From a virus (taxonomy: Duplodnaviria > Heunggongvirae > Uroviricota > Caudoviricetes): a stretch of DNA of 64,000 nt. The translations under genes and the position numbers were made by a program. The stretch lies in the IMG/VR virus record IMGVR_UViG_3300028534_000001, positions 132,338 to 196,337 of that record; one strand, written 5' to 3'. How positions within the stretch are numbered: the stretch's first letter is position 1; each line of letters opens with the position of its first letter. The notes below the pieces were generated by a model. It was not told the origin of the DNA, did not search any database, and saw nothing but the letters and a program-made list of their open reading frames with translations. Below are positions 8,055-26,255 of this stretch, piece by piece.

Positions 8055-8083
8055 ATTATATCATAATTTGGATAAAAAGTCAA
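8055..8083 (-). promoter_or_regulatory. sigma70-type early promoter
   Basis: The attata element is at 8055-8060 and agtcaa at 8078-8083, with a 17 nt spacer. It probably drives 5863..7959, the HU gene and the helicase gene. Confidence 0.65.
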
Positions 8084-8707: not shown

Positions 8708-9289
8708 TTATTCTCCTTTTTTTGCTTTTTTATTTTTTGAATATTTATTTACTATTTCTTCATAATTATCATCAGTACTTTTAACAAAAGTTCCATCTGG
8801 TGTTAAAAAACCTGTTCTATCTTTGATAACATTATAAGCAGCTTCTACACATTCATTAAATTCTAAACCATTTTCTAATGATAAATTTGATAAATATGGT
8901 AATGATTCATTTAAAAATTCTACTGCTTTTTCCATTTGATTTTTAGCAATAGCATCAGCTACTTCTCCTAAAATAACATCTAAATGAGTTAAATTTAATA
9001 AAATAGTTTTAACATTTTTATCTTCATTTAATTTAGATAAATTTAATTTTACATTATTATCTTTTTTAATAATTTCTGTTACCATAACTATAGTTACAAA
9101 TGTATCACCAATAGCATCTTTGAATTCTTCTTTATCATCTTCTAAAAATGCTTTTGAAATTTCTGATTTTTCAGAAATTGTTTTTAAAAATTGAATATTT
9201 GCTTTGGCATTTTGAATAATACCATTTTTTTCACCCCATTCTTTAATTTTATCATATAATTCTTGGATTTTTTTTGTATTTTTTGACAT
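8708..9289 (-). CDS. MazG-like NTP pyrophosphohydrolase (all-alpha)
   Basis: EKSEISKAF (E..E) and AIGDTFVTIVMV (E-L-G-D-V-L-like) are spaced as in the MazG metal-binding helices. GEVADAIAK is also present. Confidence 0.4.
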   Translation of the reverse strand: MSKNTKKIQELYDKIKEWGEKNGIIQNAKANIQFLKTISEKSEISKAFLEDDKEEFKDAIGDTFVTIVMVTEIIKKDNNVKLNLSKLNEDKNVKTILLNLTHLDVILGEVADAIAKNQMEKAVEFLNESLPYLSNLSLENGLEFNECVEAAYNVIKDRTGFLTPDGTFVKSTDDNYEEIVNKYSKNKKAKKGE

Positions 9290-10732: not shown

Positions 10733-11299
10733 TTAAATTTTATATTGTTCTACAATTATACCACATTCTTTTAAAAAATCCAAACTTTTAGTATCTCTAT
10801 ATTTTTCTTTATAAACAACTCTTTTAATTCCTGCTTGAATAATCATTTTAGCGCATTCAAAACAAGGTGAAAGTGTAACATATAAAGTAGCTCCATTTGT
10901 ACTTATTCCATTTTTTGTACAAAATAAAATAGCATTTGCTTCAGCATGAACTACTTCTGGAATTGTTTTATTATTACATTCACATTTATCTTCTCTAATT
11001 TCTTTTTTACCTGTACCACCACATTCATAACATAAAATTTCATTTTTATCAGGTATACTAAATCCATAAACATCACTTAAAGGTATTTTTAAATTTTCTT
11101 TATCTAAAATACCTTTACCATTACATAATTTACAAGTTTCTAATTTTTTTATAGTATAACCTGAAGGTAATCCATTATAACCTATACTTATGATTCTTCC
11201 ATCTTTTACTAAAACAGCTGCTACTTTTTTTCTTGTACATTTACTTTGATTTTTCCAAACATCAGCTGTTTCCATCATAACTTTATCATATTTTTTCAT
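10733..11299 (-). CDS. cd: dCMP deaminase with inserted DnaJ-type zinc-finger module
   Basis: GYNGLPSG, HAEANAI and SPCFECA are the CDA zinc motifs. A roughly 45 aa insert between YNG and HAE carries CKLCNGKG and CYECGGTG. Confidence 0.8.
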   Translation of the reverse strand: MKKYDKVMMETADVWKNQSKCTRKKVAAVLVKDGRIISIGYNGLPSGYTIKKLETCKLCNGKGILDKENLKIPLSDVYGFSIPDKNEILCYECGGTGKKEIREDKCECNNKTIPEVVHAEANAILFCTKNGISTNGATLYVTLSPCFECAKMIIQAGIKRVVYKEKYRDTKSLDFLKECGIIVEQYKI

Positions 11300-11368: not shown

Positions 11369-12196
11369 TTACCATTGAATTTTTTTAAATCTCATATCTT
11401 GAAAAGTATTTTGTTTAATATTAACATTTATAGTATTTTTAGAAGGTTTATTAGAATCTTCTCCTGTACTTATTCCTCCCCAATATTTACTACTTTCACC
11501 TACATTTAAATCAGTTTTTCCATAAATTTCTCTTATATCTAAAGGTGTATCATTTTTATCAATATCACAATAATGATAATCATAAAGAGTTATACTATGT
11601 TTTCCATTTTTAAAAGAAGCATAAATATAATTAGGATATATAGAATATTTCATTTTATTACCTTTTATTGAAGGTATATTATTATAAGATGTTTTATTAC
11701 CTATAAAATCAATAGCATTATAATTTATTTTATAAATTCTTCCTTCTTTTAAACTATTGGGAACATCAAAAGTAAAAGTATAAGGTCTTATACAAAAATG
11801 ATCTTTACTATATTCAGTTTTTATTTTTCCATCAGCTAATTTAAATGTTATTTTATATCTAGCATCTCTACTAATTTTATCAAATTTAGGAAATAAAAAA
11901 ATACCTATTCTTTTAACATTTCCAATTTTTTCATCTTTATTATTTACAATTGAAATATCATAAATTTTTATTATAGGACAAAATATTTGAATATTTTCAA
12001 AAGCACTTTTACCTTTTATTTTTGTTCCTATAATAGATAATATTTCATTTTTACATGAAACATCAACAACATTAACACATCTATGCATAATAGGATTAGT
12101 TTCTGGATGTTTGACATATGGGTGTTTTATGTTTGTATAATTTTCACTATATAAAAAACTAATCAAAATAACAATAAACATTAAAATTTTTTTCAT
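11369..12196 (-). CDS. secreted/membrane-anchored hypothetical protein
   Basis: The N-terminus has a hydrophobic signal/anchor MKKILMFIVILISFLYS. It overlaps the Sir2 gene by 4 nt (ATGA). Confidence 0.45.
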   Translation of the reverse strand: MKKILMFIVILISFLYSENYTNIKHPYVKHPETNPIMHRCVNVVDVSCKNEILSIIGTKIKGKSAFENIQIFCPIIKIYDISIVNNKDEKIGNVKRIGIFLFPKFDKISRDARYKITFKLADGKIKTEYSKDHFCIRPYTFTFDVPNSLKEGRIYKINYNAIDFIGNKTSYNNIPSIKGNKMKYSIYPNYIYASFKNGKHSITLYDYHYCDIDKNDTPLDIREIYGKTDLNVGESSKYWGGISTGEDSNKPSKNTINVNIKQNTFQDMRFKKIQW

Positions 12197-12903
12197 AATA
12201 TCCCCTTATTTTTTAATAATATTTCTAATTCTTTAGGGTTGCTACAATAATTATTATAACCTTTTCTATTATTTTTATCAACTAAAAAGGTCTCACAATT
12301 TGCAAATTTTGCTATTCCATCAATATCTATAACTATAGAACTACTACCTATTACAATTAACTTACTATTAGGGTTTTGTAAATATTCAAAAGCTCTTCTC
12401 ATATATGTATATAACCAAGCATATCCATTAAAAAATACAATATCAGGTTTTACTCCTTTTATACTATTACAATTTGGACATCTATCTTTTTCACAATCCC
12501 AATTTTTATATTTTATTTCAAATTTATTACCACAAGCTGTACATTCCATTTTAGTAATTTTACCATGTACATACATTGTAGGTATTTTTAATCTATCAAA
12601 AAAATCAGATATATTAGTTGTGATATTTATTAAAGTATCTTTATATTTATCATTTAATTTTTTTATAATATAATGATATTCATTACATTTAGAAGATTTT
12701 ATTTGATTTCTTAAAATATTATAAAATTCATGCATAACACAAAAATTTTTCTTCCAAGTTTTATCATTACAAACTATATCTTTGTTATATTTTTCCCAAA
12801 TAGAATCTTTTCCTCTAAATGTAGATAAACCAGACAAAATATCTAATCCTGCACCACTAAAAATTATAATTTTTTCACTACCATCATATCTAGGAATAAA
12901 CAT
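12193..12903 (-). CDS. Sir2-family NAD-dependent deacylase / ADP-ribosyltransferase
   Basis: GAGLDILSGLSTFRG is the Sir2 GAGIS..GIP.FR motif. The catalytic HG is present (YVHGKI). A zinc ribbon is formed by CTACG and CPNCNS. VIGSSSIV is also present. Confidence 0.7.
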   Translation of the reverse strand: MFIPRYDGSEKIIIFSGAGLDILSGLSTFRGKDSIWEKYNKDIVCNDKTWKKNFCVMHEFYNILRNQIKSSKCNEYHYIIKKLNDKYKDTLINITTNISDFFDRLKIPTMYVHGKITKMECTACGNKFEIKYKNWDCEKDRCPNCNSIKGVKPDIVFFNGYAWLYTYMRRAFEYLQNPNSKLIVIGSSSIVIDIDGIAKFANCETFLVDKNNRKGYNNYCSNPKELEILLKNKGIL

Positions 12904-12915
12904 ATGTACTCCTTT

Positions 12916-13753: not shown

Positions 13754-14032
13754 TTACTCCTTGTTAGCTTTTTCAAACATATCACAAGTTTTGACTTTGA
13801 TATCATTTAAATAAATAACATCCCATTCTTTTTTTAAAGATTCTAAATATTCATCTAATTCATCTATTACTATAAAATCAGTATCTAAATATTCAAAAGC
13901 TAGCGAAGGTAGCTCTTCGCAATTATATTTAAAATAATCTACATCAAAAGTATATTCACCTTTTGATTTTATTATTACTAAACCTATTTCATTTTTATTA
14001 AAATAATGATTATTTTTGCTTTTTATTTTCAT
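13754..14032 (-). CDS. hypothetical protein
   Basis: The start was moved to the ATG at 14032, because the track start at 14086 overlaps the -35 of promoter 14058..14086. Confidence 0.4.
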   Translation of the reverse strand: MKIKSKNNHYFNKNEIGLVIIKSKGEYTFDVDYFKYNCEELPSLAFEYLDTDFIVIDELDEYLESLKKEWDVIYLNDIKVKTCDMFEKANKE

Positions 14033-14057: not shown

Positions 14058-14086
14058 ATTATACAATAAATCAAAAGAAAAGTCAA
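14058..14086 (-). promoter_or_regulatory. sigma70-type early promoter
   Basis: The attata element is at 14058-14063 and agtcaa at 14081-14086, with a 17 nt spacer. Confidence 0.7.
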
Positions 14087-14452
14087 CTAATCTTTTGATT
14101 TTAAACAGAAAAATCCTTCTAATGCTGAATCTGTTTCTAATGTAATAAAATATAATCCTTTTTTATTAGGTGTTTCACTTACATAAATTAAAATATTACC
14201 AGCTTCATAAATTTTAAATTTAGTATTATTAAAAGTTGTCCCACCTGATCTATAAAAAGTTGCGTGTGCTTTTCTATTAGTATTGATATTTTTAAGAGCA
14301 ATTTTTAATGTGTCTTCTTTTTCAATAGCATATAACATATCTTTATTATAACTAAATGCTTTACCATCAACTTGTTTTTTAACTGAAATACATTTATATT
14401 CTGACGCAAATAGACCTACAACAAACATTAACATTAACATAACTTTTTTCAT
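14087..14452 (-). CDS. secreted hypothetical protein
   Basis: Signal peptide MKKVMLMLMFVVGLFASEYKC is present. Confidence 0.45.
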   Translation of the reverse strand: MKKVMLMLMFVVGLFASEYKCISVKKQVDGKAFSYNKDMLYAIEKEDTLKIALKNINTNRKAHATFYRSGGTTFNNTKFKIYEAGNILIYVSETPNKKGLYFITLETDSALEGFFCLKSKD

Positions 14453-15550
14453 TTAAATCTCCTTTTTATTTATTATAATTTTAATTTCATCAAATTCATA
14501 CCCAAGAGGCATTTCTAAATTTTTCATCATATTATATAATACATTTTCAGGAATAAATTTTCCTTCAGTTTCAAATCTGTATTTATTTCTAAAAAATAAT
14601 TCTTTAATTGGTGTTAATAAAGTAATAGCAATAGGTGAATGATTTTTTAGATTTGTTAACCATTTTCTTCTACTTTTCCAAGTCATATTAGTCATATCTA
14701 TAATAAAATCTTCATTTGAATTTTTTAATTCAGTAAATTTTTTAGAAACTCTTCTATCAATTTCTTTATGATCATCTTCAGTTAACATATTCCAACCATC
14801 ACTATATGTAGGATAACCTTTGCCTTTGCATTTATTACAAATTGAATGATCTAAATTATCACCTACATATCCTTCAATATAACCTTTGCCATTACAAAAA
14901 TTACAAATAAATTTTTCTTTGATATAATTCATCAAAATATTATCTCTACTTAAAACTTTTAAATTAGGTAAATTTTCCTTAATATAAGTTGATTTTCCAC
15001 TTAAAGGTGTTCCGATCATAATATAACATTTATTTTTTTTAACACCTCTTTTTATGTCTTTAAAATCAACAATGCATTCTTTTGCTTTTCTATTATTTTC
15101 ATTATCGAAAAAAATATTACCAGCTTTATCAAATAATGAAAAATTATATATTTTAAGATATTTATCAATATTTTTAGCAAAATAATGTTTTATTTGTTTT
15201 TCACTTTTTTGCCATAACATCCCGTGATAATTGATTGTATATAAAACATCTAAAATTTTATCTTTACCTAAAATTCTTTCAATATCATCAATATATTCTA
15301 ATGCTTCAAAAGTCGAAATACCTTCGTGACCTCTGTAATAATCTTTTCCATCTTTGTGAGTTTTAGCATTTGGTTTTCCCAAATCATGTAACAAACCAAC
15401 AATTTTATTAAAATCATCATTTGCTTTGCTAAATACAAGACAAGTATGAGTCCAAGTATCACCTTCTAAATGGTATTTTTCACTATGTAAAATAACATTT
15501 CTCAATTTTTCAAAATGATCTTTTTTTATTTTTTTAAATAATGTTTCCAT
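14453..15550 (-). CDS. HD-phosphohydrolase + T4 Pnk-type polynucleotide 5'-kinase fusion with DnaJ-type zinc-finger insert
   Basis: The N-terminal HD domain is marked by H..H and GLLHDLGKP. The C-terminal IMIGTPLSGKSTYI, SRDNI and DMTNMTWKSRRKW align to T4 Pnk IGCPGSGKSTWA, NRDDY and DTNLNPERRLAW. The insert carries CNFCNGKG and CNKCKGKG. Confidence 0.6.
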   Translation of the reverse strand: METLFKKIKKDHFEKLRNVILHSEKYHLEGDTWTHTCLVFSKANDDFNKIVGLLHDLGKPNAKTHKDGKDYYRGHEGISTFEALEYIDDIERILGKDKILDVLYTINYHGMLWQKSEKQIKHYFAKNIDKYLKIYNFSLFDKAGNIFFDNENNRKAKECIVDFKDIKRGVKKNKCYIMIGTPLSGKSTYIKENLPNLKVLSRDNILMNYIKEKFICNFCNGKGYIEGYVGDNLDHSICNKCKGKGYPTYSDGWNMLTEDDHKEIDRRVSKKFTELKNSNEDFIIDMTNMTWKSRRKWLTNLKNHSPIAITLLTPIKELFFRNKYRFETEGKFIPENVLYNMMKNLEMPLGYEFDEIKIIINKKEI

Positions 15551-15553
15551 ATT

Positions 15554-15715
15554 TTACTCTTTATTTTTAGATTTTTTTGATTTTAAATTTTTTCTAAGAT
15601 TTTCTAATGGATTAGTTTCTGATTTACCAAAAATATAATCCATAACACTTTGTCTATTTTCTTTTGAACTTCTAATCCATTCTGTGATAATTTTTGCTTC
15701 TCCTGTTTGAATCAT
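15554..15715 (-). CDS. small hypothetical protein (53 aa), absent from ORF track
   Basis: An ATG at 15715 with an AAGGAG RBS lies immediately downstream of promoter 15745..15773. The stop TAA is the rc of 15554-15556. Confidence 0.3.
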   Translation of the reverse strand: MIQTGEAKIITEWIRSSKENRQSVMDYIFGKSETNPLENLRKNLKSKKSKNKE

Positions 15716-15744
15716 TTTTTCTCCTTTTTTATTTTCTTAATATA

Positions 15745-15773
15745 ATTATACCAAAATTTTATAAAAAAGTCAA
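15745..15773 (-). promoter_or_regulatory. sigma70-type early promoter
   Basis: The attata element is at 15745-15750 and agtcaa at 15768-15773, with a 17 nt spacer. Confidence 0.7.
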
Positions 15774-15779
15774 GAAAAT

Positions 15780-16265
15780 TTAAGAAATTTTTTCTAATAT
15801 TTTGATAACTTGATTTTTTAAATGTTCTAAATCTTTTGTATTATCTATAATATAATCAAACAATTCATCTGATAAATCTTGTTCTGTTATATGATTATCT
15901 TCATTTTTATTAAATCTTTTTACTTTTATTAGTATAGCATTCTGTTTTTTAAGAAATTCAATTTCATTCATAAATCTAACATCTGTAACTATTATTTTAT
16001 TTTTTAAATTTTGATCTACATAATTTATAAATTGATTCTCATCATATTTTCTCATTAACATACCTATATTTCTGAATATATGTCTCCAATAAGGTATTCT
16101 TTTTAGTGTATCATATGTATGTTCATCTATTTGAAATATTTTAAAAATTTCTTTTTTAATTGGGTCTGCAAAAGCAATTTTATTAAATTCATTATCTATT
16201 TCTTTTATAATTTGATATACTGTATCTTTTCCACTTCCTTTTAAACCATGTAAACCTATAATCAT
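15780..16265 (-). CDS. deoxynucleoside monophosphate kinase (T4 gp1-like)
   Basis: MIIGLHGLKGSGKDT matches T4 gp1 MKLIFLSGVKRSGKDT. DPIKKEI matches GPIKDAL and DNHITE matches DTHITE. Confidence 0.7.
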   Translation of the reverse strand: MIIGLHGLKGSGKDTVYQIIKEIDNEFNKIAFADPIKKEIFKIFQIDEHTYDTLKRIPYWRHIFRNIGMLMRKYDENQFINYVDQNLKNKIIVTDVRFMNEIEFLKKQNAILIKVKRFNKNEDNHITEQDLSDELFDYIIDNTKDLEHLKNQVIKILEKIS

Positions 16266-16303
16266 AAAAATCTCCTCAATTTTTAATTAAAAGAAAAAAT
16301 CTT

Positions 16304-17434
16304 TTAATTATCTAAATTTTTGATAAATTCTCTTGCTTTAGTAAGTTTAGAATTATCTTTTATTATTTTTTCTTTTAATAATTTATCTAAATCATTTTCA
16401 TTCTTTGCTTTCATTATAACTCCAAAATATGGGTATTTATTATATTTCATTGCAAATTCTTTTCTTTCCATATTTAGTTTTTCTTTAAAAAGATTTAAAC
16501 ATTTATTATATGTATGATTATAAAAATGTGAAACTTTGTTTGTTAATTCAGATATAATTTTATGTTTTTCACCTTTTAAATTTGATAAAATATCATCAAT
16601 TGTTTCATTTATAATATGTTCTATAAGTTTATTTTCAACTAATTCATTAGGTGATAATAATTTATGTAATGTAAAATACCACATTGTTTTAAATTTTCTA
16701 AAAGATGTTTTGAGTGGGTGATTATAATTTCTTACTACCCATCCTTCAATTCCTTCTTTTGTTTCTAGTAATTTTCTTAATTCTGATAATGTATAATTAT
16801 ATTTTTTTGCTAATTTTAAATTAAATTCTTTTGAAAAATGTTTTAAATCTTCATAATGTAAATATTCACCTGTAAATTTATTTCTTATTTGAATTAGTCT
16901 AAGTTCAAATTCTTCTTCATAATTAACAACAATTAAATTTTTCCACCCAACTAATTCAAAAAATGGAATAAATCCAATAAGTTTACAAGCTTTAATAAAA
17001 TTTAAATAATTTTCATTATTTTTAATAAATTTATTTGCTAAATCAGCTTGTTCTGAATAAAAAGAACCTTTAGTTCTAAGTAAAAAATTACCTTTTGAAG
17101 AAAATGTAGGAACAATTAAACTTCCATCTAATTTTTCCATAATTTCTAATTTATCATTATCATTCCAAGGTTTTTCTAATTCTTTATCAATAGTTAAAGG
17201 ATTTTCATTATCATTAAAAAATTTATGAAGACCTAACCATCTTTCTCCTGTATCCAAATTAAAACATAATCCTCTCATTTCTAATCTTTTAAAATCTTCA
17301 CTAAAATCGGTAAAACTTGCTAATCTATAATTAAAAATTCTAAATTTTTCTCCATCAAATTCCTCATCTTTATAATAAAAAGATTCATTATTTTCAACTA
17401 CTTTCATTGCTTCTTCTAAAGTTATTAAATTCAT
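16304..17434 (-). CDS. rnlA: RNA ligase 1 (T4 RnlA-like)
   Basis: At 376 aa it is close to T4 RnlA (374 aa). N-terminal FYYKDEEFDGEKFRIFNYRLASFTDF matches FFYSDDVS.GRTYRIFSYNYASYSDW. Motif I is EKLDGSL. Confidence 0.75.
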   Translation of the reverse strand: MNLITLEEAMKVVENNESFYYKDEEFDGEKFRIFNYRLASFTDFSEDFKRLEMRGLCFNLDTGERWLGLHKFFNDNENPLTIDKELEKPWNDNDKLEIMEKLDGSLIVPTFSSKGNFLLRTKGSFYSEQADLANKFIKNNENYLNFIKACKLIGFIPFFELVGWKNLIVVNYEEEFELRLIQIRNKFTGEYLHYEDLKHFSKEFNLKLAKKYNYTLSELRKLLETKEGIEGWVVRNYNHPLKTSFRKFKTMWYFTLHKLLSPNELVENKLIEHIINETIDDILSNLKGEKHKIISELTNKVSHFYNHTYNKCLNLFKEKLNMERKEFAMKYNKYPYFGVIMKAKNENDLDKLLKEKIIKDNSKLTKAREFIKNLDN

Positions 17435-17470
17435 TTTTATTCCTTATAATTATCATGGATATTTTATATA

Positions 17471-17499
17471 ATTATACTAAATTTTCAAATAAAAGTCAA
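17471..17499 (-). promoter_or_regulatory. sigma70-type early promoter
   Basis: The attata element is at 17471-17476 and agtcaa at 17494-17499, with a 17 nt spacer. Confidence 0.7.
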
Positions 17500-17507
17500 G
17501 AGAAATA

Positions 17508-18524
17508 TTAAATTTCTCTTTTTAAAATATCCCTTACTATTTCTTGAGCTGAAGGTCTTGCTAAATTTTGAATAATTTTTTTCTCGCCTTTATCTAATTC
17601 ATTAAATTTAGGATTATCTTTAATAAAATCTTCTAAAGCATCTTTGAAAAATAATCCTACAATTTTACCAAATTGTTTCCAATCTTTTTCAACTTCACCT
17701 TTTGAAAATAAATTATGAAGTCTATTAACTTCAAAGTATTTTGTAATTTCTTCTGCCCATTTTCTTTGTTCATCTGTAATTACAATTTGTTTTTTATTTT
17801 TAATTTTTTTAATTTTACCTTTTTCTTTAAATTTATCATTTTTATTTTTAAGAATAACTCTATCACCATTAGGCAATGTTTTATTAACTACTGGTTTAAT
17901 TACAACACCTTCACAAATATTTCCTTCTATAGGATTTAATCCATACAATTCAGGGATTTTTGTAGGAAATTCATTTGAAAATTGTAAACATTCTTCAAAT
18001 GTTCCTCTAAATAATTCTGGAACTACTTTAAATTCACAATTAAAAGCTAAATTTTTAACTTTATCCCATTCTAAAAATTCAGCATTTTCATCCTCATCAA
18101 CAGTCATAATATCAAAAACCATAAAATCAGTAAATGGAATATAATGAACTTCTTTTTGAATTTTTGTAAACCCTGGTTTAGTTTCACCATTAAAAATACC
18201 ACCAAAATGTTCTCCAAAAATTTGAACTTGTTTAATTTTTGGATTTTGTGAAATTAAAAAAGATGCAACTTTTTTAGCTGATTCTCTGTAATTTTCAAGC
18301 ATAATATCTGCATCATAAAATTTTTCTAATTCATTATCATTTAAAACAGATGTTCTTTTAGCAACTTTAACATTTTCTCCATCTGAAATGAAGCTAAAAT
18401 TTGTCCCGTGAATTTTTTCAGTAACTACCCATTCACAACAATCTATAATTCCACTTGTGATAATTCTTTTAATTTCTTTTTCTCTGTAAGAATTTTCAAT
18501 TGATGAATATTTTTTAAATTTCAT
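17508..18524 (-). CDS. rnlB: RNA ligase 2 (T4 Rnl2-like)
   Basis: MKFKKYSSIENSYREKEI...CEWVVTEKIHGTNFS is nearly identical to the T4 Rnl2 N-terminus and motif I EKIHGTN. At 338 aa it is close to T4 Rnl2 (334 aa). Confidence 0.8.
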   Translation of the reverse strand: MKFKKYSSIENSYREKEIKRIITSGIIDCCEWVVTEKIHGTNFSFISDGENVKVAKRTSVLNDNELEKFYDADIMLENYRESAKKVASFLISQNPKIKQVQIFGEHFGGIFNGETKPGFTKIQKEVHYIPFTDFMVFDIMTVDEDENAEFLEWDKVKNLAFNCEFKVVPELFRGTFEECLQFSNEFPTKIPELYGLNPIEGNICEGVVIKPVVNKTLPNGDRVILKNKNDKFKEKGKIKKIKNKKQIVITDEQRKWAEEITKYFEVNRLHNLFSKGEVEKDWKQFGKIVGLFFKDALEDFIKDNPKFNELDKGEKKIIQNLARPSAQEIVRDILKREI

Positions 18525-18557: not shown

Positions 18558-18586
18558 ATTATATCATATTTTAATAGAAAAGTCAA
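18558..18586 (-). promoter_or_regulatory. sigma70-type early promoter
   Basis: The attata element is at 18558-18563 and agtcaa at 18581-18586, with a 17 nt spacer. Confidence 0.7.
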
Positions 18587-19411: not shown

Positions 19412-19633
19412 TTACTTAAAAATAAATAAATCTAATGGATAAAATATAAATGCTCCTATTATTGAAACAATTACTAAATGTATATATTCTTGATATTTAC
19501 CTTTACAACAATCATATTTTACTAAGATATATAAAGGTAACATCATAATAAAAGCACTTAAAATCCATCTGAATAAATAAATTAAAAAAATTTTAGTTAA
19601 ATATATACTAACAACACTCACATAATTCTCCAT
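19412..19633 (-). CDS. small membrane protein
   Basis: 73 aa with two hydrophobic helices. Confidence 0.3.
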   Translation of the reverse strand: MENYVSVVSIYLTKIFLIYLFRWILSAFIMMLPLYILVKYDCCKGKYQEYIHLVIVSIIGAFIFYPLDLFIFK

Positions 19634-20057
19634 TTTCTAATATTTCATAATTATTAAATTTATTTATAGCATAATTAAATGTTGGAATATTAGAATATAA
19701 ATTTTTAATTTTTGCTAAACAAGTTTTTTTATTTATTACAATATTTTTATCAAATTCAAAATTATCTATTATTACTTTTTTTACTATACAATTTTTATTA
19801 GTATAATAAGATATATTATAAATTAAAACATATAACATTTTTACAAATTCTTCATAATTTATATTAGATAAAATATATTTTTCGGATAAATTTTTATCAT
19901 TAGTTATAAATATATTATCAATAGAATTCAAAAAACATTCAATGTTTTTTTCACAGGATATATCAGAAATATCTATTTTTATATTTATATCTTTTACATC
20001 TAAATTGTTTGAAGCAAAACAAATTTTTATTTGTTTATTCAATTTTATCCTCCTCAA
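19608..20057 (-). CDS. hypothetical Cys-containing protein
   Basis: 149 aa ORF. Confidence 0.35.
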   Translation of the reverse strand: MRRIKLNKQIKICFASNNLDVKDINIKIDISDISCEKNIECFLNSIDNIFITNDKNLSEKYILSNINYEEFVKMLYVLIYNISYYTNKNCIVKKVIIDNFEFDKNIVINKKTCLAKIKNLYSNIPTFNYAINKFNNYEILENGELCECC

Positions 20058-20361
20058 ATAAATATTCTTCTTTAATTCCTTTAGAGTCTAAAATAAATTT
20101 TATTGTATTGTGAATTCTTTTTCCATTATCGTCTTTGAATTCAGTTAATAAAGAATTAAAACTAATTGGTTTAATTAAAATATTAACATTTTCAGATAAT
20201 TTATTTAATAAATCATAATAAAATTTTATTTCTTTTGTATTATTTACTTTTATATATAAAGAAGATGTATTTGGAAAAAAACAATTACCTAAAATATCCA
20301 TAATAAATTTTATAGTTTTGTCTTTTTCTATACTTAAATGTAATTTTTCTACATTTATCAT
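20035..20361 (-). CDS. hypothetical protein
   Basis: 108 aa ORF. Confidence 0.4.
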   Translation of the reverse strand: MINVEKLHLSIEKDKTIKFIMDILGNCFFPNTSSLYIKVNNTKEIKFYYDLLNKLSENVNILIKPISFNSLLTEFKDDNGKRIHNTIKFILDSKGIKEEYLFEEDKIE

Positions 20362-20406
20362 TTTAAAAATCCTTTTTATTTTATTATATCATATATATTA
20401 AAATTA

Positions 20407-21039
20407 TCAAACTTTTTTAGGGGCTACTTTTCTAAATTCACTCATAAGATTATTAAAAATTGGTTTATATTTTTTATTTATACAATCCCATTCAAAATTA
20501 CAATTTTTATAATCTTTTAAAATTTCATCTAAAGATATATAATAAGGAAATTCATATGCTCTTTTATCATTTTTAGCAATAAATGTTGCCCAATATATTA
20601 GTCTTAAACTATGAAAAAGACTCTTAGCAGAAATTAAAATTTCATTATGTAAATTTAATTTTTTCTTTGCTTTTACATATGAATTATTAACTTTTTTAGA
20701 TATAAATTTTCTTAATTTTATTTTATCAATATCATTTATTAGTAAATTAAAATTATATTTTTTAATAGGATTTTTATTGAAAAACATTGCTAAAAACATG
20801 TCATTACATTCATTTATTAAATCTATTAAATTTTCTTCAGATATAATATGTATATCAATTTTTTTACTTTCATAAATATCATAATAAATATCTTTATAAT
20901 TAGTAATTATTAAAAAATCATAATCAGAATTTTCATTGTTTGAACCATATAATCTAGAACCATATTCATAAATTCCTAAAATATTTTCTTTTGATATATT
21001 ATAATTTTCTTTTAAAATTTTATATATTAAATTTTCCAT
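20407..21039 (-). CDS. pol-beta superfamily nucleotidyltransferase
   Basis: GSRLYGSNNENSDYDFLII is the GS...D.D nucleotidyltransferase motif. It is paralogous to 25218..26225. Confidence 0.5.
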   Translation of the reverse strand: MENLIYKILKENYNISKENILGIYEYGSRLYGSNNENSDYDFLIITNYKDIYYDIYESKKIDIHIISEENLIDLINECNDMFLAMFFNKNPIKKYNFNLLINDIDKIKLRKFISKKVNNSYVKAKKKLNLHNEILISAKSLFHSLRLIYWATFIAKNDKRAYEFPYYISLDEILKDYKNCNFEWDCINKKYKPIFNNLMSEFRKVAPKKV

Positions 21040-21041
21040 AT

Positions 21042-21560
21042 TTACTCCTTTTTGTGTTTAATCAATTCTTCAACAAAACTATACATATTTTTTGGAATTT
21101 CATATAAATCCTCAGCAAATAAATAATATTTATTATCAATTTCACAAATATACTCAGGTTCTTCCATATAAGAATTTTTAGTATTTTTTATTTTAATTTT
21201 ATATGATTTTACTTTATTTCCTCTTAATTTATTAAGTTTTTCTGACAAAGAATTAAAATAAATTTTTACTTTTTCTTTTAAATCTTCAAAAAAATATCCT
21301 TTTATTTTTAATAAATCTTTATAATCACCATAAGATTGTTGTCCAAATTCTTTAGGATATATTTCGTATATATTATAAATAAAAATTTCTTCGTAAGGTT
21401 TATCAGAAATTATATTTTTAGCATTTTTTTTAATAAGTTTTAAAGTATCTTCCAAATTATTTGGAAGTACAATTAAATCTTGATACCCTAATTCTTCCCC
21501 ATATAATTGAATTCTATAACCTTTAAATTTTAATTTTACATTTACATTTAATTCTTTCAT
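21042..21560 (-). CDS. hypothetical protein
   Basis: 172 aa ORF. Confidence 0.4.
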   Translation of the reverse strand: MKELNVNVKLKFKGYRIQLYGEELGYQDLIVLPNNLEDTLKLIKKNAKNIISDKPYEEIFIYNIYEIYPKEFGQQSYGDYKDLLKIKGYFFEDLKEKVKIYFNSLSEKLNKLRGNKVKSYKIKIKNTKNSYMEEPEYICEIDNKYYLFAEDLYEIPKNMYSFVEELIKHKKE

Positions 21561-21622
21561 ATTTTTAAACCTTTATTCAATGTATGTACAAAATGAAATA
21601 GAGTAAATAAATTTACTTCCAA

Positions 21623-21910
21623 TTATACTAAAAACCATACCAACATTATTGATGTGTAAAATAAAAAAGTTAAAAACGTTACGCTTTTCCAATTAGATTC
21701 ATTTACTAATAATAAAATAATAATACTAGGTAAAATACCTAAAGAAGGGCTTACTAATATATTTATAGCTATATTTATAAAAATATTTAACAAAGCTATT
21801 ATAATAAATATAAAATCATAATTTTTAAATCTATTTTCAAATTTTTGAAAAGACATCAATCTTTTCAAAATATTATCTAATTTTTCTTTTTTAGATATTC
21901 TTTTAATCAT
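21623..21910 (-). CDS. small membrane protein
   Basis: 95 aa with hydrophobic segments. Confidence 0.35.
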   Translation of the reverse strand: MIKRISKKEKLDNILKRLMSFQKFENRFKNYDFIFIIIALLNIFINIAINILVSPSLGILPSIIILLLVNESNWKSVTFLTFLFYTSIMLVWFLV

Positions 21911-21919
21911 ATTTACCCT

Positions 21920-22876
21920 TTAATATTTTTCATATTTTAACCTTGGTTTAATATTACCATTTAATAAAGGTGTATTTTCTACTGTTTTAATATAAGATGT
22001 AATTTCTTTATTTAATTCTTCTTTTTTAATTTCTAATTGATTTACTAAACTATCTAATTCTTTTTTGAAATTTAATCTACTATCAGTTAAAGTTTTTACT
22101 GTTTTTGCTTCAATTAAATTATCTTGACTAAGTTCAATAGCATCTTTAATAGCTTCTTTTGTATTTTTATCATTTAGTATTATGAATTCATTTAAAACTT
22201 CTTTAACTACATCATAATTTTGTTTAATATTTTTCATTTTATTATTTTGTGATGCAATTACAAATTGCATTTTTAACATAGATTGAATTTGTGGAGACAT
22301 TTCTTCTGCTTTTTGTTTCATACTAGCAAAAGATTGAATTTGTAATCTACATTCCTCTAAATTATTTGTATTGATGACATTTAAACTTTTTAAACTTCTA
22401 ATCATATTATCAATTTCAATTTTTTCAAGTTCATTTCTAGGTTTTAATTTTTTTAATTCTTTAATTTGATTTTCAATATCTTTTTTTGCTTGTTCATTTA
22501 CTACATAAATTTCTTTATAATATTGAAATTTTTCTTCAGTATCTTTAATTATTTCATCTTGAATTCTTTTTAAATCATCAGAAATATCTTTTAATGAACT
22601 TCTATTTATTTCAAAATCATCTATTTTTTCTTTTACAAAAGGGACATATGACAAAACTTTACCAAAAAATGTTTGTTTTCTAGATGTATCTAATAATTGT
22701 CTTGCTTGCATCAATTTAGATACTAATTCTTGGAAATTTTCATTTAATTCATCAACATTAGTATTAGATAAAATATCATCTGTTACATTTTCAATATTTT
22801 CTTGGATTCTTTTATATTCATATTTTATTTCTGTTAAAGTGTCTTCATAATACCCTTCAAAAATTTCTTTATTCAT
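21920..22876 (-). CDS. coiled-coil hypothetical protein
   Basis: 318 aa ORF. Confidence 0.45.
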   Translation of the reverse strand: MNKEIFEGYYEDTLTEIKYEYKRIQENIENVTDDILSNTNVDELNENFQELVSKLMQARQLLDTSRKQTFFGKVLSYVPFVKEKIDDFEINRSSLKDISDDLKRIQDEIIKDTEEKFQYYKEIYVVNEQAKKDIENQIKELKKLKPRNELEKIEIDNMIRSLKSLNVINTNNLEECRLQIQSFASMKQKAEEMSPQIQSMLKMQFVIASQNNKMKNIKQNYDVVKEVLNEFIILNDKNTKEAIKDAIELSQDNLIEAKTVKTLTDSRLNFKKELDSLVNQLEIKKEELNKEITSYIKTVENTPLLNGNIKPRLKYEKY

Positions 22877-22887
22877 TTTAACTCCTT

Positions 22888-23877
22888 TTAATATTGGTAA
22901 ACATAAGTTAAATTAGGAATATTGCCTAATAAATTTTGTAATTCATATAACATTTCTTTGTTATCAATTTTATATACAATTTTTAAATCATCTTTTGTGT
23001 CATTATTTTTTAAATACAATCCTATAATATAAGATGTTAAAAATTTATTTCTATTAAAATATTTATCTTTTTGAATATCAAGTAAAGAATTTATATTTTT
23101 TATTTCAATATTTAAATATTTTTTTACTTTTTTTGGTAATAAAGATGGACTATCTAAATAATTGTTTAAAATCATATATAATAATCCAAATTCTTGTTGA
23201 ATATTTTTATCATCTAAAATTTTAGTTTGAATTCTAAATGAATTATTTATTGTAATTTCTTCACTTAAAAAACTTTTTTTTGATTTTTCACAATATGTCA
23301 TTCCAATATATTTTGGAAATACACCTAAAAACATCAATTCTTCTTTAAAAATATTATAATCAGATTTTAAATTATTTATTGTTGTTTTTACCATTTTTTC
23401 AATTTCTTTTTCATTATTTTCTTTGATTTTTTTTGCTTTTTCAATAAATTCTAAACTTTCTAAATATCTTTTAATAAAATTTAAAAGTTTATCATTTACT
23501 TTTATGTTTACTTTATTATTTTTAAAATTATTATAACTTTCATCAAATAAAATTTTTTTATTTTTAGGTTTTAATAATATATGATATCCTTTTTCTTTAA
23601 GTATATCTTGAAGTATAAACACATTATAATCTTTACTAAATATATCATTAAAAAAAGATTCTGGTATCATATATGGAGTATTTTTTGATAAATTTACAAA
23701 TATTGAATTAGAATTATATATTTTTGTTTCTTCAATAATATATCCATCTAAAAATTCTTCATAATTTTTTAAAATATTTTCTATTTTTTCTAATTCTTTA
23801 ATAGTTTCAAAAATAGATAATTTTTCTACTTTATGTTCTTTTATATTTTTTAATTTTAAAAATCCAAATAAATTCAT
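22888..23877 (-). CDS. hypothetical protein
   Basis: 329 aa ORF. Confidence 0.45.
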   Translation of the reverse strand: MNLFGFLKLKNIKEHKVEKLSIFETIKELEKIENILKNYEEFLDGYIIEETKIYNSNSIFVNLSKNTPYMIPESFFNDIFSKDYNVFILQDILKEKGYHILLKPKNKKILFDESYNNFKNNKVNIKVNDKLLNFIKRYLESLEFIEKAKKIKENNEKEIEKMVKTTINNLKSDYNIFKEELMFLGVFPKYIGMTYCEKSKKSFLSEEITINNSFRIQTKILDDKNIQQEFGLLYMILNNYLDSPSLLPKKVKKYLNIEIKNINSLLDIQKDKYFNRNKFLTSYIIGLYLKNNDTKDDLKIVYKIDNKEMLYELQNLLGNIPNLTYVYQY

Positions 23878-23886
23878 ATTTTCTCC

Positions 23887-24264
23887 TTATAATTGATTAA
23901 CAATATAATTCCCTGCTTCAATAATTGCTTCTATCTCTGTATTACCAAAAAATTCCTTATTTAATAATGATATATAACATATAGATTTATTTTTATTACA
24001 AAATGAACTATTTAGAATATAACCTTGGTAATCATAAGCCCATTTTTTTATTTCAAAAACAAATTCAAAAACATTTAATTCTTTATAAAAATTTTGTTTA
24101 GTGTTATAATAATCATTTTGCAAATGTTTATTAAATTCTGTTTTATGTAATTCATTAGGAGTGCAATAAATTTTACAAATTATTTTATTACCTTCAATAG
24201 TAATATATTCAATAAATTTTTCATCAATTCCTATAATTTTACTAAATAATTTTTTACTAATCAT
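23887..24264 (-). CDS. hypothetical protein
   Basis: The start was moved to the ATG at 24264 with an AAGGAG RBS, because the track start overlaps the promoter -10. Confidence 0.4.
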   Translation of the reverse strand: MISKKLFSKIIGIDEKFIEYITIEGNKIICKIYCTPNELHKTEFNKHLQNDYYNTKQNFYKELNVFEFVFEIKKWAYDYQGYILNSSFCNKNKSICYISLLNKEFFGNTEIEAIIEAGNYIVNQL

Positions 24265-24291
24265 GATTTCTCCTTGACTTTTTATAATATA

Positions 24292-24320
24292 ATTATACAA
24301 TAAAAAAAGAAAAAAGTCAA
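24292..24320 (-). promoter_or_regulatory. sigma70-type early promoter
   Basis: The attata element is at 24292-24297 and agtcaa at 24315-24320, with a 17 nt spacer. Confidence 0.7.
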
Positions 24321-24526
24321 GGTTTTTTAATATAAATTTGATTTTTATATTTAATACCTTTATTTATACATTTTCCTGTTTGTTTACTATATTCAAAACA
24401 TATCTCTTCTACATCAGGTTTTGTAAAAGCTTTATATATACCATAAAATAGAAAAAATATCATTACTAATAATATTAAATTTCCTATAATTTTTTCTTCT
24501 AAAGTTGGTTTAGGGAAATAACCCAT
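24317..24526 (-). CDS. small membrane protein
   Basis: 69 aa with one transmembrane helix. Confidence 0.35.
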   Translation of the reverse strand: MGYFPKPTLEEKIIGNLILLVMIFFLFYGIYKAFTKPDVEEICFEYSKQTGKCINKGIKYKNQIYIKKP

Positions 24527-24553
24527 AATTTATCCTTTTAATTTAAAAATTTT

Positions 24554-25141
24554 TTAATTTTTTAAAAAATTATAAAGTTTTAACATTGGAGGATTATATA
24601 AATTATTTTTATCATAAGTATCTAATTGAATTAAATCTTTTTTAATATCTTTAAGTGTTAAAGGATGTAATGATATATATCTAACATCTCTTTGCCAAGA
24701 CATAGAACTTCTTTCGAAACCTTTAAAAGAAAATATAAATACTAATTCATCTCTTTTAATATCCATAAATGATGTTCTTCCATCAGGAACTAATCTATCT
24801 GTAATAATAAAAACATATTTAAAAGATATAACTTTTTTAATTGTTTTTTTATTTTTAGAATAAATATCATTAAAAAAATCTTCAAAATCATTTTTTAAAA
24901 AAGATATAAATTCTTTATCATTATCAAAAAATATTCTTATTTCTTTTTTTGTAAAAAGTTTAAATGCATGATTTTTTAAACCTTTTCTTATTTTTTTAGC
25001 ATAACTTTTTAAGTTGAAATTTTTCTTTTCAATTTCATCTAATACTAAATCAAAAACTACTCTATCAAATTCATTATCAAGTAATTTATAAATTAACTTA
25101 TGCGATATTGAATGTTTTAATTCTTTTAAACTTATTTTCAT
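24554..25141 (-). CDS. hypothetical protein
   Basis: 195 aa ORF. Confidence 0.4.
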   Translation of the reverse strand: MKISLKELKHSISHKLIYKLLDNEFDRVVFDLVLDEIEKKNFNLKSYAKKIRKGLKNHAFKLFTKKEIRIFFDNDKEFISFLKNDFEDFFNDIYSKNKKTIKKVISFKYVFIITDRLVPDGRTSFMDIKRDELVFIFSFKGFERSSMSWQRDVRYISLHPLTLKDIKKDLIQLDTYDKNNLYNPPMLKLYNFLKN

Positions 25142-25192
25142 GTGAAATCCTTATATTTTTACAAAATTTTTTCATATTTTTTATATATAATA

Positions 25193-26225: not shown

Positions 26226-26255
26226 TTTTTCTCCTTGATTTTTATATATAATATA

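Follow-up and report, generated by a model that had tools for sequence, protein, structure and literature searches.

A divergent sirtuin gene in an uncultured jumbo phage resembles protein deacylases more than NAD-depleting defence proteins

Introduction

Sirtuins are encoded by nearly a thousand sequenced phages, and there are competing hypotheses for what they do there: activation of host enzymes by deacetylation, or NAD-dependent RNA repair. Both protein deacetylation and the removal of 2'-phosphates during RNA repair have been proposed in print (PMC5107563, PMC9503650), and no biochemically characterised phage sirtuin was found in the literature searched. Knowing the function would explain why NAD+ is also consumed by phages that restore it in the face of NAD-depleting host immunity. 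The present case is a Sir2-family gene located in a 64,000-nucleotide stretch of DNA, hereafter called the window, from an uncultured jumbo phage. The gene is a useful test case because it lies between an RNA-repair block and NAD-supply genes, because its product retains a zinc ribbon and is thus likely to be stable and expressible, and because natural substitutions fall at exactly those residues by which cofactor and substrate are bound.

Results and discussion

The sirtuin gene and its carrier

The gene and its predicted start signal are as follows.

12193..12903, minus strand: sirtuin (Sir2-family) gene encoding 236 amino acids (open reading frame, Pfam SIR2, phrog_2162, AF2 and Foldseek)
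12914..12909, minus strand: strong Shine-Dalgarno-like AAGGAG read in the sequence, 5 nucleotides 5' of the sirtuin ATG

A preliminary description of the locus had placed a Sir2 domain at 12193-12903. The open reading frame (ORF) fits this span exactly on the minus strand, starting at 12903 and ending with a TGA stop codon at 12195..12193, and its product matches Pfam SIR2 with an E-value of 8.7e-26. The ORF upstream ends at 12916, leaving an intergenic gap of 12 nucleotides.

The phage that carries the gene has a very AT-rich genome (20% GC) of about 210-220 kb. A megablast search of the 11-14 kb region against 50,697 phage records returned no match, and the source phage is without a sequenced close relative among these records. 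No tRNA genes were found by a search of the 64-kb window. The top genome match is a Malacoplasma metagenome-assembled genome (MAG), which raised the possibility of genetic code 4. This code was rejected because the sirtuin ending at TGA is co-linear with its homologues.

Family and fold assignment

The match to Pfam SIR2 (PF02146) extends over protein residues 17-191 and model positions 1-178 of 180, and is far above chance because a near-complete model is matched, scoring 91.4 bits where the cut-off is 24. Likewise, the PHROG profile phrog_2162, annotated as 'Sir2 (NAD-dependent deacetylase)', matches residues 7-208 (E 1.1e-40, 140.6 bits). A weak match to Pfam Zn_ribbon_8 is found at residues 120-147. 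The AF2 model has a pLDDT of 95.4 and a pTM of 0.91, and the Rossmann fold and small zinc-binding module expected of sirtuins are present in the model and sequence. When this model was compared with the PDB by Foldseek, the top 50 matches were all deacylase sirtuins with TM scores of 0.7-0.8, the best being E. coli CobB, Sir2-Af1/Af2 and SIRT5 at about 0.8. The nearest sequences with solved structures are CobB, Sir2-Af1/Af2, Sir2Tm and SIRT5, all of which are protein deacylases. The NCBIfam CobB models (NF040867, NF001753 and related) all score below their cut-offs, with the best values being 104.1 versus 243 and 96.4 versus 320 bits.

The preliminary description had framed the domain as a possible defence effector, and this framing does not fit the data. 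None of 5,027 PADLOC defence models matches at E <= 0.01, there is no defence-type SIR2 structure among the top 50 Foldseek matches, a zinc ribbon is present, and no sensor or partner (SLOG, HerA, pAgo or TIR) is fused to the sirtuin or encoded by its neighbours. As judged from its sequence and model, therefore, this appears to be a real NAD-using sirtuin gene whose product resembles protein deacylases more than NAD-depleting defence proteins. The product is very probably a folded and catalytically competent deacylase-type sirtuin belonging to the phage family.

Active-site motifs

The residues expected to form the active site map to the following positions.

12814..12855, minus strand: NAD-binding motif, residues G17-R30 (GAGLDILSGLSTFR), from an alignment of 29 homologues
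12604..12621, minus strand: altered QNxD motif, T95-T-N-I-S-D100, in which N97 is invariant, Q96 is replaced by T and D99 by S
12565..12567, minus strand: codon of the catalytic His113
12469..12543, minus strand: four-Cys zinc ribbon (C121, C124, C142, C145), intact in the alignments

The protein carries S-G17-A-G19, S24-G25, T28-F-R-G31, Asn97, His113 and Cys121/124/142/145. Among 29 close homologues, S24, F29 and R30 are invariant and G17, A18, G19, G25 and T28 are almost so, and the same S24, F29 and R30 are retained in nearly all of 116 aligned sirtuins. Both N97 and His113 are invariant across all 116, and His113 aligns with the HG of CobB, Af1 and Af2. Because the zinc ribbon is kept, the protein is likely to be stable and expressible. 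V156 is invariant and F158 nearly so in the sirtuin alignments; judging from the structures of Sir2Tm and CobB, we take these to be the FGE-loop residues that form the acetyl-lysine tunnel. An equivalent argument based on the acyl-lysine tunnel has been published for KVP40-type sirtuins (PMC5107563).

The preliminary description of a canonical sirtuin core holds for the GAG, SG and TFRG motifs, the His and the four Cys, but not for the remainder of the site. QNxD is replaced by TTNIS and FGE by FNG, and relatives extend about 20 residues further at the C-terminus. The Gln and Asp of a canonical QNxD contact the ribose and nicotinamide of NAD. D99 is substituted in 10 of 39 viral homologues versus none of 77 bacterial homologues, and D100 is present whenever D99 is lost. 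The F-N-G version of the FGE loop is without Glu, and E160 is lost in 8/39 viral versus 0/77 bacterial sequences. In the VYP loop, which reads V-I-D, Pro is changed to Asp; P193 is lost in 18/39 viral versus 8/77 bacterial sequences. Finally, Y61 of the YxxR pair is kept, whereas the residue at +3 is Leu64 (FYNILR versus FYNARR in CobB), with R64 lost from 12 of the 39 viral and 3 of the 77 bacterial homologues. In CobB (Y92/R95) and SIRT5 (Y102/R105), this Tyr-x-x-Arg pair recognises succinyl and malonyl groups.

What sets this sirtuin apart is that its substitutions cluster at the motifs of the cofactor and substrate sites. Taken together, D99S, Q96T, FGE to FNG, VYP to VID and YxxR to YxxL suggest a substrate or mode of regulation unlike that of bacterial CobB, and the substitutions would argue against a preference for succinyl- or malonyl-lysine. 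Since four motifs with a cofactor or peptide contact in canonical sirtuins are altered and the CobB NCBIfam scores are far below their cut-offs, deacylase activity should not be assumed.

NAD-supply genes

Two genes predicted to contribute to NAD supply are found in the window.

36053..37420, minus strand: NMNAT-like adenylyltransferase fused to an NAD-kinase C-domain (Pfam CTP_transf_like and NAD_kinase_C)
43516..44901, minus strand: nicotinamide phosphoribosyltransferase (NAMPT/NadV; Pfam NAMPT_N and NAPRTase)

The NAMPT assignment is supported by NCBIfam NF006629 (431.6 bits, above the cut-off of 405) and phrog_448 (E 4e-119). NCBIfam models for NAD kinase and NMNAT match the fusion gene, all below cut-off. 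NAMPT and NMNAT are the NAD-rebuilding genes of NARP2-type pathways (Osterman et al., bioRxiv 10.1101/2024.02.11.579819). Although the sirtuin had been described as sitting beside NAD-salvage genes, and such genes are in the window on the same strand, the fusion gene is 23 kb and NAMPT 31 kb away. In other viruses the distance is smaller: of 38 dereplicated viral loci, 7 carry NAMPT or NMNAT at 0.5-7 kb from the sirtuin gene, and in loci L049 and L013 one of these two genes directly adjoins it (<=0.5 kb). Because of these two adjoining arrangements, a functional tie between the sirtuin and NAD supply is plausible.

RNA-repair genes and the wider neighbourhood

The nearest annotated neighbours are RNA-repair genes, which are much closer to the sirtuin than are the NAD genes.

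14453..18524, minus strand: RNA-repair block upstream of the sirtuin (Pfam matches), with the four genes below
17508..18524, minus strand: Rnl2 (Pfam), 4.6 kb from the sirtuin
16304..17434, minus strand: Rnl1 (Pfam), 3.4 kb from the sirtuin
15780..16265, minus strand: dNMP kinase (Pfam), 2.9 kb from the sirtuin
14453..15550, minus strand: HD and P-loop (AAA_33) kinase (Pfam; HD seen in the homologue from locus L005), 1.5 kb from the sirtuin

Other layouts are present in relatives, such as an RNA ligase with a Nudix gene (L002) or an HD-kinase with RlaP (L005). A ligase, PNK-like or RlaP gene is found within 10 kb in 13 of the 38 viral loci and is lacking from that interval in the other 25, a count that has no matched control. 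Genes for dCMP deaminase and RNA ligase are each neighbours in 7 of the 38 loci. When 857 neighbour genes from these loci were clustered by BLASTP, dCMP deaminase and Rnl1 were the only families common to the window and at least four loci. BLASTP comparison of the immediate sirtuin neighbours in the window, Murica, KVP40, L002 and L005 gave nothing significant, and therefore there is no conserved adjacent partner. Also, the Murica gene at the 'cREC position' has no BLASTP homologue around the window's sirtuin. Among 150 neighbour genes taken from the 16 closest loci, the Pfam matches were heterogeneous. Some of the IMG/VR 'viral' contigs among these 16 loci are probably bacterial, given genes such as PrkA/DUF444/SpoVR, arginase and MmeI.

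In the window, every RNA-ligase gene is served by a separate promoter-like site (TTGACT-N17-TATAAT), and there is thus no indication that these genes are transcribed together with the sirtuin. A promoter scan of the window yielded 112 sites versus 112.4 expected from shuffled sequence, and only the repeated TTGACT-N17-TATAAT sites located 5' of genes look meaningful. A terminator-like hairpin at 13903..13920 falls inside coding sequence, and its T tail is weak. The ORF at 8708..9289, guessed by eye to be MazG-like, is without Pfam support for this assignment and was set aside.

The downstream ORF

A second ORF follows the sirtuin and overlaps its stop codon.

11369..12196, minus strand: 275-amino-acid ORF with an N-terminal signal peptide or anchor, downstream of the sirtuin
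12193..12196, minus strand: ATGA overlap formed by the sirtuin TGA (12195..12193) and the ATG of the 275-amino-acid ORF (12196..12194)

The preliminary description had the start of the sirtuin overlapping the stop of an upstream gene for a secreted protein. This order is reversed, since it is the stop codon of the sirtuin that overlaps the start of the downstream ORF. A Shine-Dalgarno-like AAGGGGA at 12207..12201 (minus strand) precedes this start within the final codons of the sirtuin. The N-terminus of the 275-residue protein has Lys-Lys followed by a 13-residue hydrophobic stretch, with a Kyte-Doolittle maximum at residue 4, and the AF2 model has a helix at residues 2-20. These features are in keeping with a secreted protein, but a membrane anchor is equally possible. 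The protein has no match in Pfam, PHROG, NCBIfam or PADLOC, and only two homologues were found among 5.8 billion proteins. An AF2 model built from these three sequences is unusable (pLDDT 42.7).

One possibility is that the two genes form a module in which the sirtuin and a translationally coupled, exported protein cooperate, perhaps with the sirtuin modifying or regulating its partner. The ATGA overlap is real, a Shine-Dalgarno-like sequence lies inside the last sirtuin codons, and the same overlap is present in a sister phage (L170) whose sirtuin is 72% identical. However, the pairing recurs only in this one phage, where the whole region is syntenic and the overlap thus reflects recent shared ancestry. 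Relatives including L002 and L005 lack the ORF at this position, its family has three members, and start/stop overlaps of this kind are common in the window, where they join no fewer than 13 pairs of genes on the same strand. Moreover, the two products would be in different compartments, one being exported and the NAD enzyme being cytoplasmic. The proposed coupling is therefore weak, the 275-amino-acid ORF is probably not a functional partner of the sirtuin, and a two-gene module seems highly improbable.

Proposed function and alternatives

An NAD-consuming modification is still the best reading of this gene, and its product is most likely an NAD-dependent deacylase or an ADP-ribosyl-transfer enzyme. 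During infection, the sirtuin would bind NAD+, cleave off nicotinamide through chemistry involving Asn97 and His113, and pass the ADP-ribosyl moiety to a bound macromolecular substrate. This substrate would most probably be an acylated lysine on a protein of the host or the phage, in which case the reaction would be a deacylation giving O-acyl-ADP-ribose. The freed nicotinamide could then be recycled to NAD+ by the phage NAMPT and NMNAT. The domain, fold, catalytic residues, family membership and lack of defence-type features are shown by the present data, whereas we infer the activity, the acyl-lysine acceptor and the tie to the NAD genes. The full statement, that an active CobB/Sir2-Af/SIRT5-like sirtuin acts as an NAD+-dependent protein deacylase during infection, is the leading candidate, although we give it somewhat less than an even chance. 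Counted against it are the altered motifs, the RNA-repair genes as nearest annotated neighbours, and a comparative analysis in which most phage sirtuins are assigned to RNA repair (PMC9503650); in addition, the genes near the sirtuin include none for an acetyltransferase or an evident protein target.

Perhaps the enzyme instead uses NAD+ in the manner of Tpt1/KptA to ADP-ribosylate and remove 2'-phosphates at tRNA or RNA junctions, which would arise after cleavage by a host anticodon nuclease and healing and sealing by the phage HD/kinase and RNA ligases. This role was predicted for the main clade of phage sirtuins by Iyer et al. 2022 (PMC9503650, section 3.7.3), based on neighbourhoods with T4-type tRNA ligase, nucleotide kinase, MazG, cREC, Nudix, 2H or HAD genes. 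We confirmed the rV5-type layout in Murica (RnlA, hypothetical gene, Sir2, NTP-pyrophosphohydrolase). In the window, the repair genes at 1.5-4.6 kb on the same strand, the similar genes in L002 and L005, the 13 loci with such a gene within 10 kb, and the lack of any Tpt1/KptA, Macro or 2H domain among ORFs of at least 90 amino acids are all consistent with this role, and the altered peptide-binding loops are compatible with a non-protein acceptor. However, the case is purely contextual, and no experimental paper was found in the literature searched. The association is also not universal (25 of 38 loci are without such a gene within 10 kb), and dCMP deaminase, a gene with no connection to RNA repair, occurs as a neighbour just as often as RNA ligase. 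The separate promoter-like sites of the ligase genes and the conserved hydrophobic tunnel for acyl-lysine also weigh against it, and the position of the sirtuin beside the rV5/KVP40 clade comes from a neighbour-joining tree without support values. Furthermore, T4-type repair by Pnkp and Rnl1 leaves no 2'-phosphate. We therefore consider RNA repair to be possible but unlikely. A related proposal concerns the window subclade (this phage, P0002, P0003, P0017, P0018 and similar sequences), in which Asp is changed to Ser/Thr and Gln to Thr/Met in the nicotinamide pocket, FGE is changed to F(N/G)G and VxP to Vx(D/N), with Asn97 and His113 fixed. Because the pocket and both peptide loops have changed together while these two residues are fixed, the subclade might have been re-tooled to use a non-protein acceptor, such as an RNA 2'-phosphate in Tpt1-independent tRNA repair, or another pyridine-nucleotide co-substrate. 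This proposal is slightly less probable; if true, the subclade would be the first sirtuin with a role in nucleic-acid repair.

SirTM, SIRT4 and SIRT6 are capable of ADP-ribosylation, and the present enzyme might similarly be a mono-ADP-ribosyltransferase that takes over or disarms a host target (a protein or nucleic acid) rather than deacylating it. Its NAD-cleaving core is intact while FGE, VYP and YxxR are relaxed in viral relative to bacterial copies, and host proteins are commonly ADP-ribosylated by phages, as by T4 Alt/ModA/ModB (PMC9503650). The invariant catalytic His is used in the deacylation step, however, class III/U deacylases are the closest proteins in both fold and sequence, and there is no adjacent macrodomain or reversal enzyme as with SirTM, all of which makes this role quite unlikely. 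Even less credible is a free NADase that manipulates the NAD pool for superinfection exclusion, host shut-off or counter-defence, in the manner of Thoeris, DSR or SIR2-HerA effectors. Sir2 domains can be NADases, and the NARP2-type NAMPT and NMNAT genes of this phage show that NAD levels matter to it. Against this stand the missing PADLOC match, partner domains and defence-type fold matches noted above, and a phage that restores NAD+ is unlikely to co-express an unregulated NADase.

Comparison with known systems

Defence SIR2 NADases (ThsA, DSR1/DSR2, SIR2-HerA, SIR2-pAgo) have the same superfamily fold and NAD+ cleavage chemistry, but the present sirtuin differs from them in being a single 236-amino-acid domain with a zinc ribbon and no match in PADLOC. 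SirTM systems have an adjacent macrodomain, whereas there is no Macro domain among window ORFs of at least 90 amino acids.

Among solved structures, CobB (1S5P/6RXJ), Sir2-Af1, Sir2-Af2 (class III/U) and SIRT5 are the best matches (sequence E 2e-16, fold TM about 0.8). They share with the phage protein the GAGxS, TFR, Asn, His-Gly, zinc ribbon and G(T/S)S features, but identity is only about 22%, and the phage protein departs from the CobB type at QNxD (TTNIS), FGE (FNG), VYP (Pro to Asp) and YxxR (Arg to Leu). Its closest cellular homologues are sirtuins of Campylobacterota (Arcobacter, Halarcobacter, Sulfurimonas and Sulfurovum MAGs) at 29-36% identity, exceeded by a single match at 37% in a MAG assigned to Malacoplasma. 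The Campylobacterota proteins have a V/I-C-x signature and zinc ribbon, as does the present sirtuin, but unlike it they retain canonical TQNVDD, FGE and YxxRR. In a neighbour-joining tree, which has no support values, the Campylobacterota sirtuins are sister to the clade of the window, and the rV5/KVP40 clade comes next.

Homologues were detected by tblastn in 976 phage records, including KVP40 and rV5-like phages. The phrog_2162 sirtuins (the 'distinct viral sirtuin clade' of PMC9503650), such as KVP40.0043 ('Sir2/CobB') and Murica gp76, are 30-38% identical to the present protein over residues 11-168, and V-C-N at 44-46, H57-x-FYN and VFF in place of VWF are common to all. Q96 is often substituted in the phage family, by T in Murica and by A in KVP40, and the N-V-S-D of the latter resembles N-I-S-D here. 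The carriers are also alike, as KVP40 is a large phage that encodes NAMPT and NMNAT (PMC5107563) and Murica, of the rV5 type, is a large phage with an RNA ligase beside its sirtuin. However, the four-Cys zinc ribbon is kept here but lost in KVP40 and the rV5 type (alignment; PMC5107563), whereas the Glu of the FGE loop is lost here and kept there. The C-terminal third is shorter than in these proteins, with matches ending by about residue 175, and the genes immediately beside the KVP40 and Murica sirtuins are not homologous to those in the window. Phage sirtuins are therefore an already established family, known since KVP40, and the present gene is a divergent but expected member of it rather than a new system.

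The sirtuin gene and its product

The sirtuin and the gene that follows it occupy these positions:

12914..12909, minus strand, AAGGAG, 5-nt spacer before the sirtuin ATG
12903..12901, minus strand, ATG start codon
12193..12903, minus strand, sirtuin ORF, 236 aa
12195..12193, minus strand, TGA stop codon
12196..12193, minus strand, ATGA, sirtuin stop overlapping the next start
11369..12196, minus strand, 275-aa ORF downstream of the sirtuin

Residues 17-191 of the protein match Pfam SIR2 (model positions 1-178 of 180, E 8.7e-26), and the sequence carries SGAGLDILSGLSTFRG at residues 16-31, His113-Gly and Cys121/124/142/145. Thus, the Sir2 domain, catalytic His and four-Cys zinc ribbon named in the preliminary description are correct far beyond chance, and its ORF bounds are exact. 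The ORF lies on the minus strand, and the gene order given there is reversed: the ATGA overlap is real, and it joins the sirtuin stop to a downstream start, not the sirtuin start to an upstream stop.

The solved relatives nearest by sequence are E. coli CobB, Sir2-Af1/Af2, Sir2Tm and SIRT5 (E about 2e-16). An AlphaFold model from a 29-sequence alignment has pLDDT 95.4 and pTM 0.91, and its top 50 Foldseek matches in the PDB are all deacylase-type sirtuins (TM 0.7-0.8). There is no match to the PADLOC defence models, and no sensor domain is fused to or neighbours the sirtuin. These observations identify a zinc-ribbon 'true sirtuin' rather than a SIR2 NADase of the defence type. It scores far under cut-off in all NCBIfam CobB models, and therefore does not qualify as a CobB equivalog. 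Among profiles, the phage family phrog_2162, 'Sir2 (NAD-dependent deacetylase)', matches best (E 1.1e-40), and by tblastn 976 phage records contain a homologue (30-38% identity over residues 11-175), among them KVP40-like Vibrio phages and rV5-like coliphages. We are highly confident that the protein folds, binds NAD, is catalytically competent, has the deacylase structural type and belongs to the phage sirtuin family.

Departures from the canonical active site

In an alignment of 39 dereplicated viral sequences and 77 bacterial homologues, N97 and H113 are invariant in both sets, S24, F29 and R30 are invariant or nearly so, and V156 and F158 are conserved. Four other elements differ.

Motif losses in viral and bacterial sequences; the sequences are phylogenetically related, so the Fisher p-values overstate independence
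QNxD D99 replaced: viral 10/39, bacterial 0/77, p 8e-6 (a fair comparison, since the genome scan pattern permitted D, S or T at 99)
FGE-loop Glu lost: viral 8/39, bacterial 0/77, p 1e-4
V-x-P-loop Pro lost: viral 18/39, bacterial 8/77, p 3e-5
Arg at Tyr+3 lost: viral 12/39, bacterial 3/77, p 1e-4

A comparison at Gln96 is not fair because the pattern permitted only Q or M there. The 'viral' set is also not purely viral: several IMG/VR contigs of 450-600 kb (L016, L017 and others) carry sirtuin homologues among bacterial-looking neighbours (PrkA/DUF444/SpoVR, arginase and an MmeI R-M system), and are probably misclassified bacterial contigs.

In the window protein, the canonical (T)QN(V/I)D-D reads T-T-N-I-S-D. 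No aligned sequence, viral or bacterial, lacks Asp at both 99 and 100, and thus the adjacent Asp may compensate for the loss of D99. All four changes occur together in this protein, whose C-terminus is also some 20 residues shorter than those of its relatives. The core described as canonical is therefore so in GAG/SG/TFRG, His and the four Cys, and substituted in QNxD, FGE, VxP and YxxR. This suggests that viral sirtuins, particularly the window subclade, have kept the NAD-cleaving chemistry while cofactor-pocket and acceptor-binding elements were relaxed or re-tooled. CobB and SIRT5 prefer succinyl and malonyl groups; Leu at Tyr+3 argues against such a preference here.

Source phage and gene content

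The source is an uncultured jumbo phage. The window has a GC content of 19.9%. Almost all of its genes, and nearly all ORFs of 90 aa or more, lie on the minus strand. The identical sirtuin is found on metagenomic contigs of 207-222 kb. Megablast of 11-14 kb against 50,697 phage records gave no DNA-level match, and the window helicase is at most 35% identical to cultured-phage proteins. T4-type gp23, gp32 and RNase H are present in relatives that share this sirtuin family. The window itself encodes T4-type Rnl1 and Rnl2, dNMP kinase, an HD + P-loop kinase, dCMP deaminase, GroES, YqeY, two RlaP-like nucleotidyltransferases, CCA-adding-type and Thg1-like enzymes and, among cofactor genes, NAMPT, an NMNAT-NAD-kinase fusion, three Nudix proteins and CoaE.

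The nearest cellular sirtuins come from Campylobacterota (Arcobacter, Sulfurimonas, Sulfurovum; 29-36% identity), setting aside a single 37%-identity match in a Malacoplasma-binned MAG; their affiliation hints at, and does not prove, a host in that phylum. Other features are as follows:

10733..11299, minus strand, dCMP deaminase with an inserted pair of DnaJ-type CxxCxGxG zinc fingers, CKLCNGKG...CYECGGTG (the sister phage deaminase has a weak DnaJ_CXXCXGXG match)
14453..15550, minus strand, HD/P-loop kinase with a similar insert, CNFCNGKG...CNKCKGKG
27754..28572, minus strand, clear FliM domain (flagellar motor switch; Pfam E 1.3e-19), which is unexpected in a phage and suggests a flagellated host or motility manipulation
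31541..32434, SPFH/Band-7 protein
19600..60100, region with CoaE (dephospho-CoA kinase, E 5e-30), three NUDIX proteins (one at 29088..29507), a nucleoside 2-deoxyribosyltransferase-like protein, an HU-like DNA-binding protein and a calcineurin-like phosphoesterase

The promoter-like sequence TTGACT-N17-TATAAT (11/12 consensus positions) recurs before minus-strand genes:

18586..18558, minus strand, before Rnl2
17499..17471, minus strand, before Rnl1
15773..15745, minus strand, before a 53-aa ORF
14086..14058, minus strand, before the ORF block leading to the sirtuin
8083..8055, minus strand, before a gene at about 8 kb

They may be early promoters of the phage; the promoter-like total in the window is not above shuffled expectation.

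Gene neighbourhood

The sirtuin had been placed beside NAD-salvage genes, which in fact lie 23 and 31 kb away:

36053..37420, minus strand, 455 aa, NMNAT-like cytidylyltransferase (residues about 60-165) fused to NAD kinase (residues about 215-450)
43516..44901, NAMPT

Together these could allow the phage to make NAD+ and, onward, NADP+. On the same strand, the sirtuin is 1.5 kb downstream of the HD/P-loop kinase, and 2.9, 3.4 and 4.6 kb from dNMP kinase, Rnl1 and Rnl2.

There is an unusually complete tRNA/RNA repair kit at 14453..18524, 25218..26225, 58959..59780 and 62274..63080, all on the minus strand, comprising Rnl2, Rnl1, HD + P-loop kinase, RlaP, a CCA-adding-type nucleotidyltransferase and a Thg1-like 3'-5' polymerase. 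A second RlaP/Pol-beta-like ORF lies elsewhere in the window. No tRNA genes are found within the 64 kb.

Of 38 dereplicated viral loci, scored within 10 kb on either side of the sirtuin, 7 have an RNA ligase, 6 a PNK-like kinase and 3 RlaP (13 have at least one of these); 4 have NAMPT, 6 NMNAT and 7 dCMP deaminase. NAMPT/NMNAT genes are directly adjacent in two loci (L049 and L013). No conservation of immediate neighbours was found. Since both associations recur, neither is universal and the counts have no matched control, context does not decide between the published proposals of RNA repair and of protein deacetylation.

Possible reactions of the sirtuin

Our preferred reading, a tentative one with somewhat less than even confidence, is that the sirtuin would deacylate acyl-lysine of host or phage proteins, with the released nicotinamide recycled by phage NAMPT/NMNAT. 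Three observations favour it: the identity of the nearest structural relatives, the conservation of the His and of the tunnel residues, and the repeated adjacency of NAMPT/NMNAT to the sirtuin in relatives. A 2'-phosphotransferase-like activity in RNA repair is unlikely, though it ranks second. Iyer et al. 2022 (PMC9503650) proposed from gene neighbourhoods that most phage sirtuins form a distinct RNA-repair clade, which would remove 2'-phosphates as KptA/Tpt1 does. The rV5-type operon of Escherichia phage Murica has the order RnlA, hypothetical gene, Sir2, NTP-pyrophosphohydrolase; a P-loop NTPase and a metallophosphoesterase are divergent from it. No Tpt1/KptA, Macro or 2H domains were found within the window, about one third of the genome. 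ADP-ribosylation of protein or nucleic acid is improbable, and a free NADase or counter-defence factor more improbable still.

We consider it very improbable that the sirtuin and the exported 275-aa protein, which the preliminary description called translationally coupled, form a functional pair. The ATGA overlap and an SD-like AAGGGGA within the final sirtuin codons could be read in its favour. The N-terminus of the 275-aa ORF is Lys-Lys followed by a hydrophobic stretch. This ORF has only two homologues, at 52% identity, among 5.8 billion proteins. One of them is in the sister phage, which shares the ATGA overlap and is syntenic throughout the region, and a third contig (L171) with the 72%-identical sirtuin has an equal 4-nt overlap with a gene running to the contig end. 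However, stop/start overlaps link at least 13 pairs of same-strand genes in this window, and the next relatives, whose sirtuins are 47-53% identical, have other small genes after the sirtuin. The arrangement is thus ordinary phage gene packing from recent shared ancestry and no evidence of a functional pair. The 275-aa ORF has no family match in any library searched, and its AF2 model is unusable (pLDDT 42.7). In the same gene block there is a second small ORF (14087..14452, minus strand, 121 aa) with a signal-peptide-like N-terminus, MKKVMLMLMFVVGLFA, and no family match.

Comparison with known systems

Phage sirtuins beside NAD-salvage and RNA-repair genes have been known since KVP40 and are systematically surveyed, and the window sirtuin is a new divergent member of this group. 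Skliros et al. 2016 (PMC5107563) described the KVP40-type Sir2/CobB alongside phage NAMPT/NMNAT and proposed that it deacetylates enzymes of the host, for example acetyl-CoA synthetase. No experimental test of either phage-sirtuin hypothesis was found in the literature searched. NARP2 systems pair NAMPT with NMNAT or NMNAT/Nudix (Osterman et al., bioRxiv 10.1101/2024.02.11.579819); those described have no kinase partner, whereas this phage has NAMPT and an NMNAT-NAD-kinase fusion. Zinc ligands are absent from the KVP40-type protein (PMC5107563), whereas the window sirtuin keeps the ribbon. What distinguishes it, while not yet making a new class, is this retained ribbon combined with substitutions in QNxD, FGE, VxP and YxxR, which makes it a good experimental probe.
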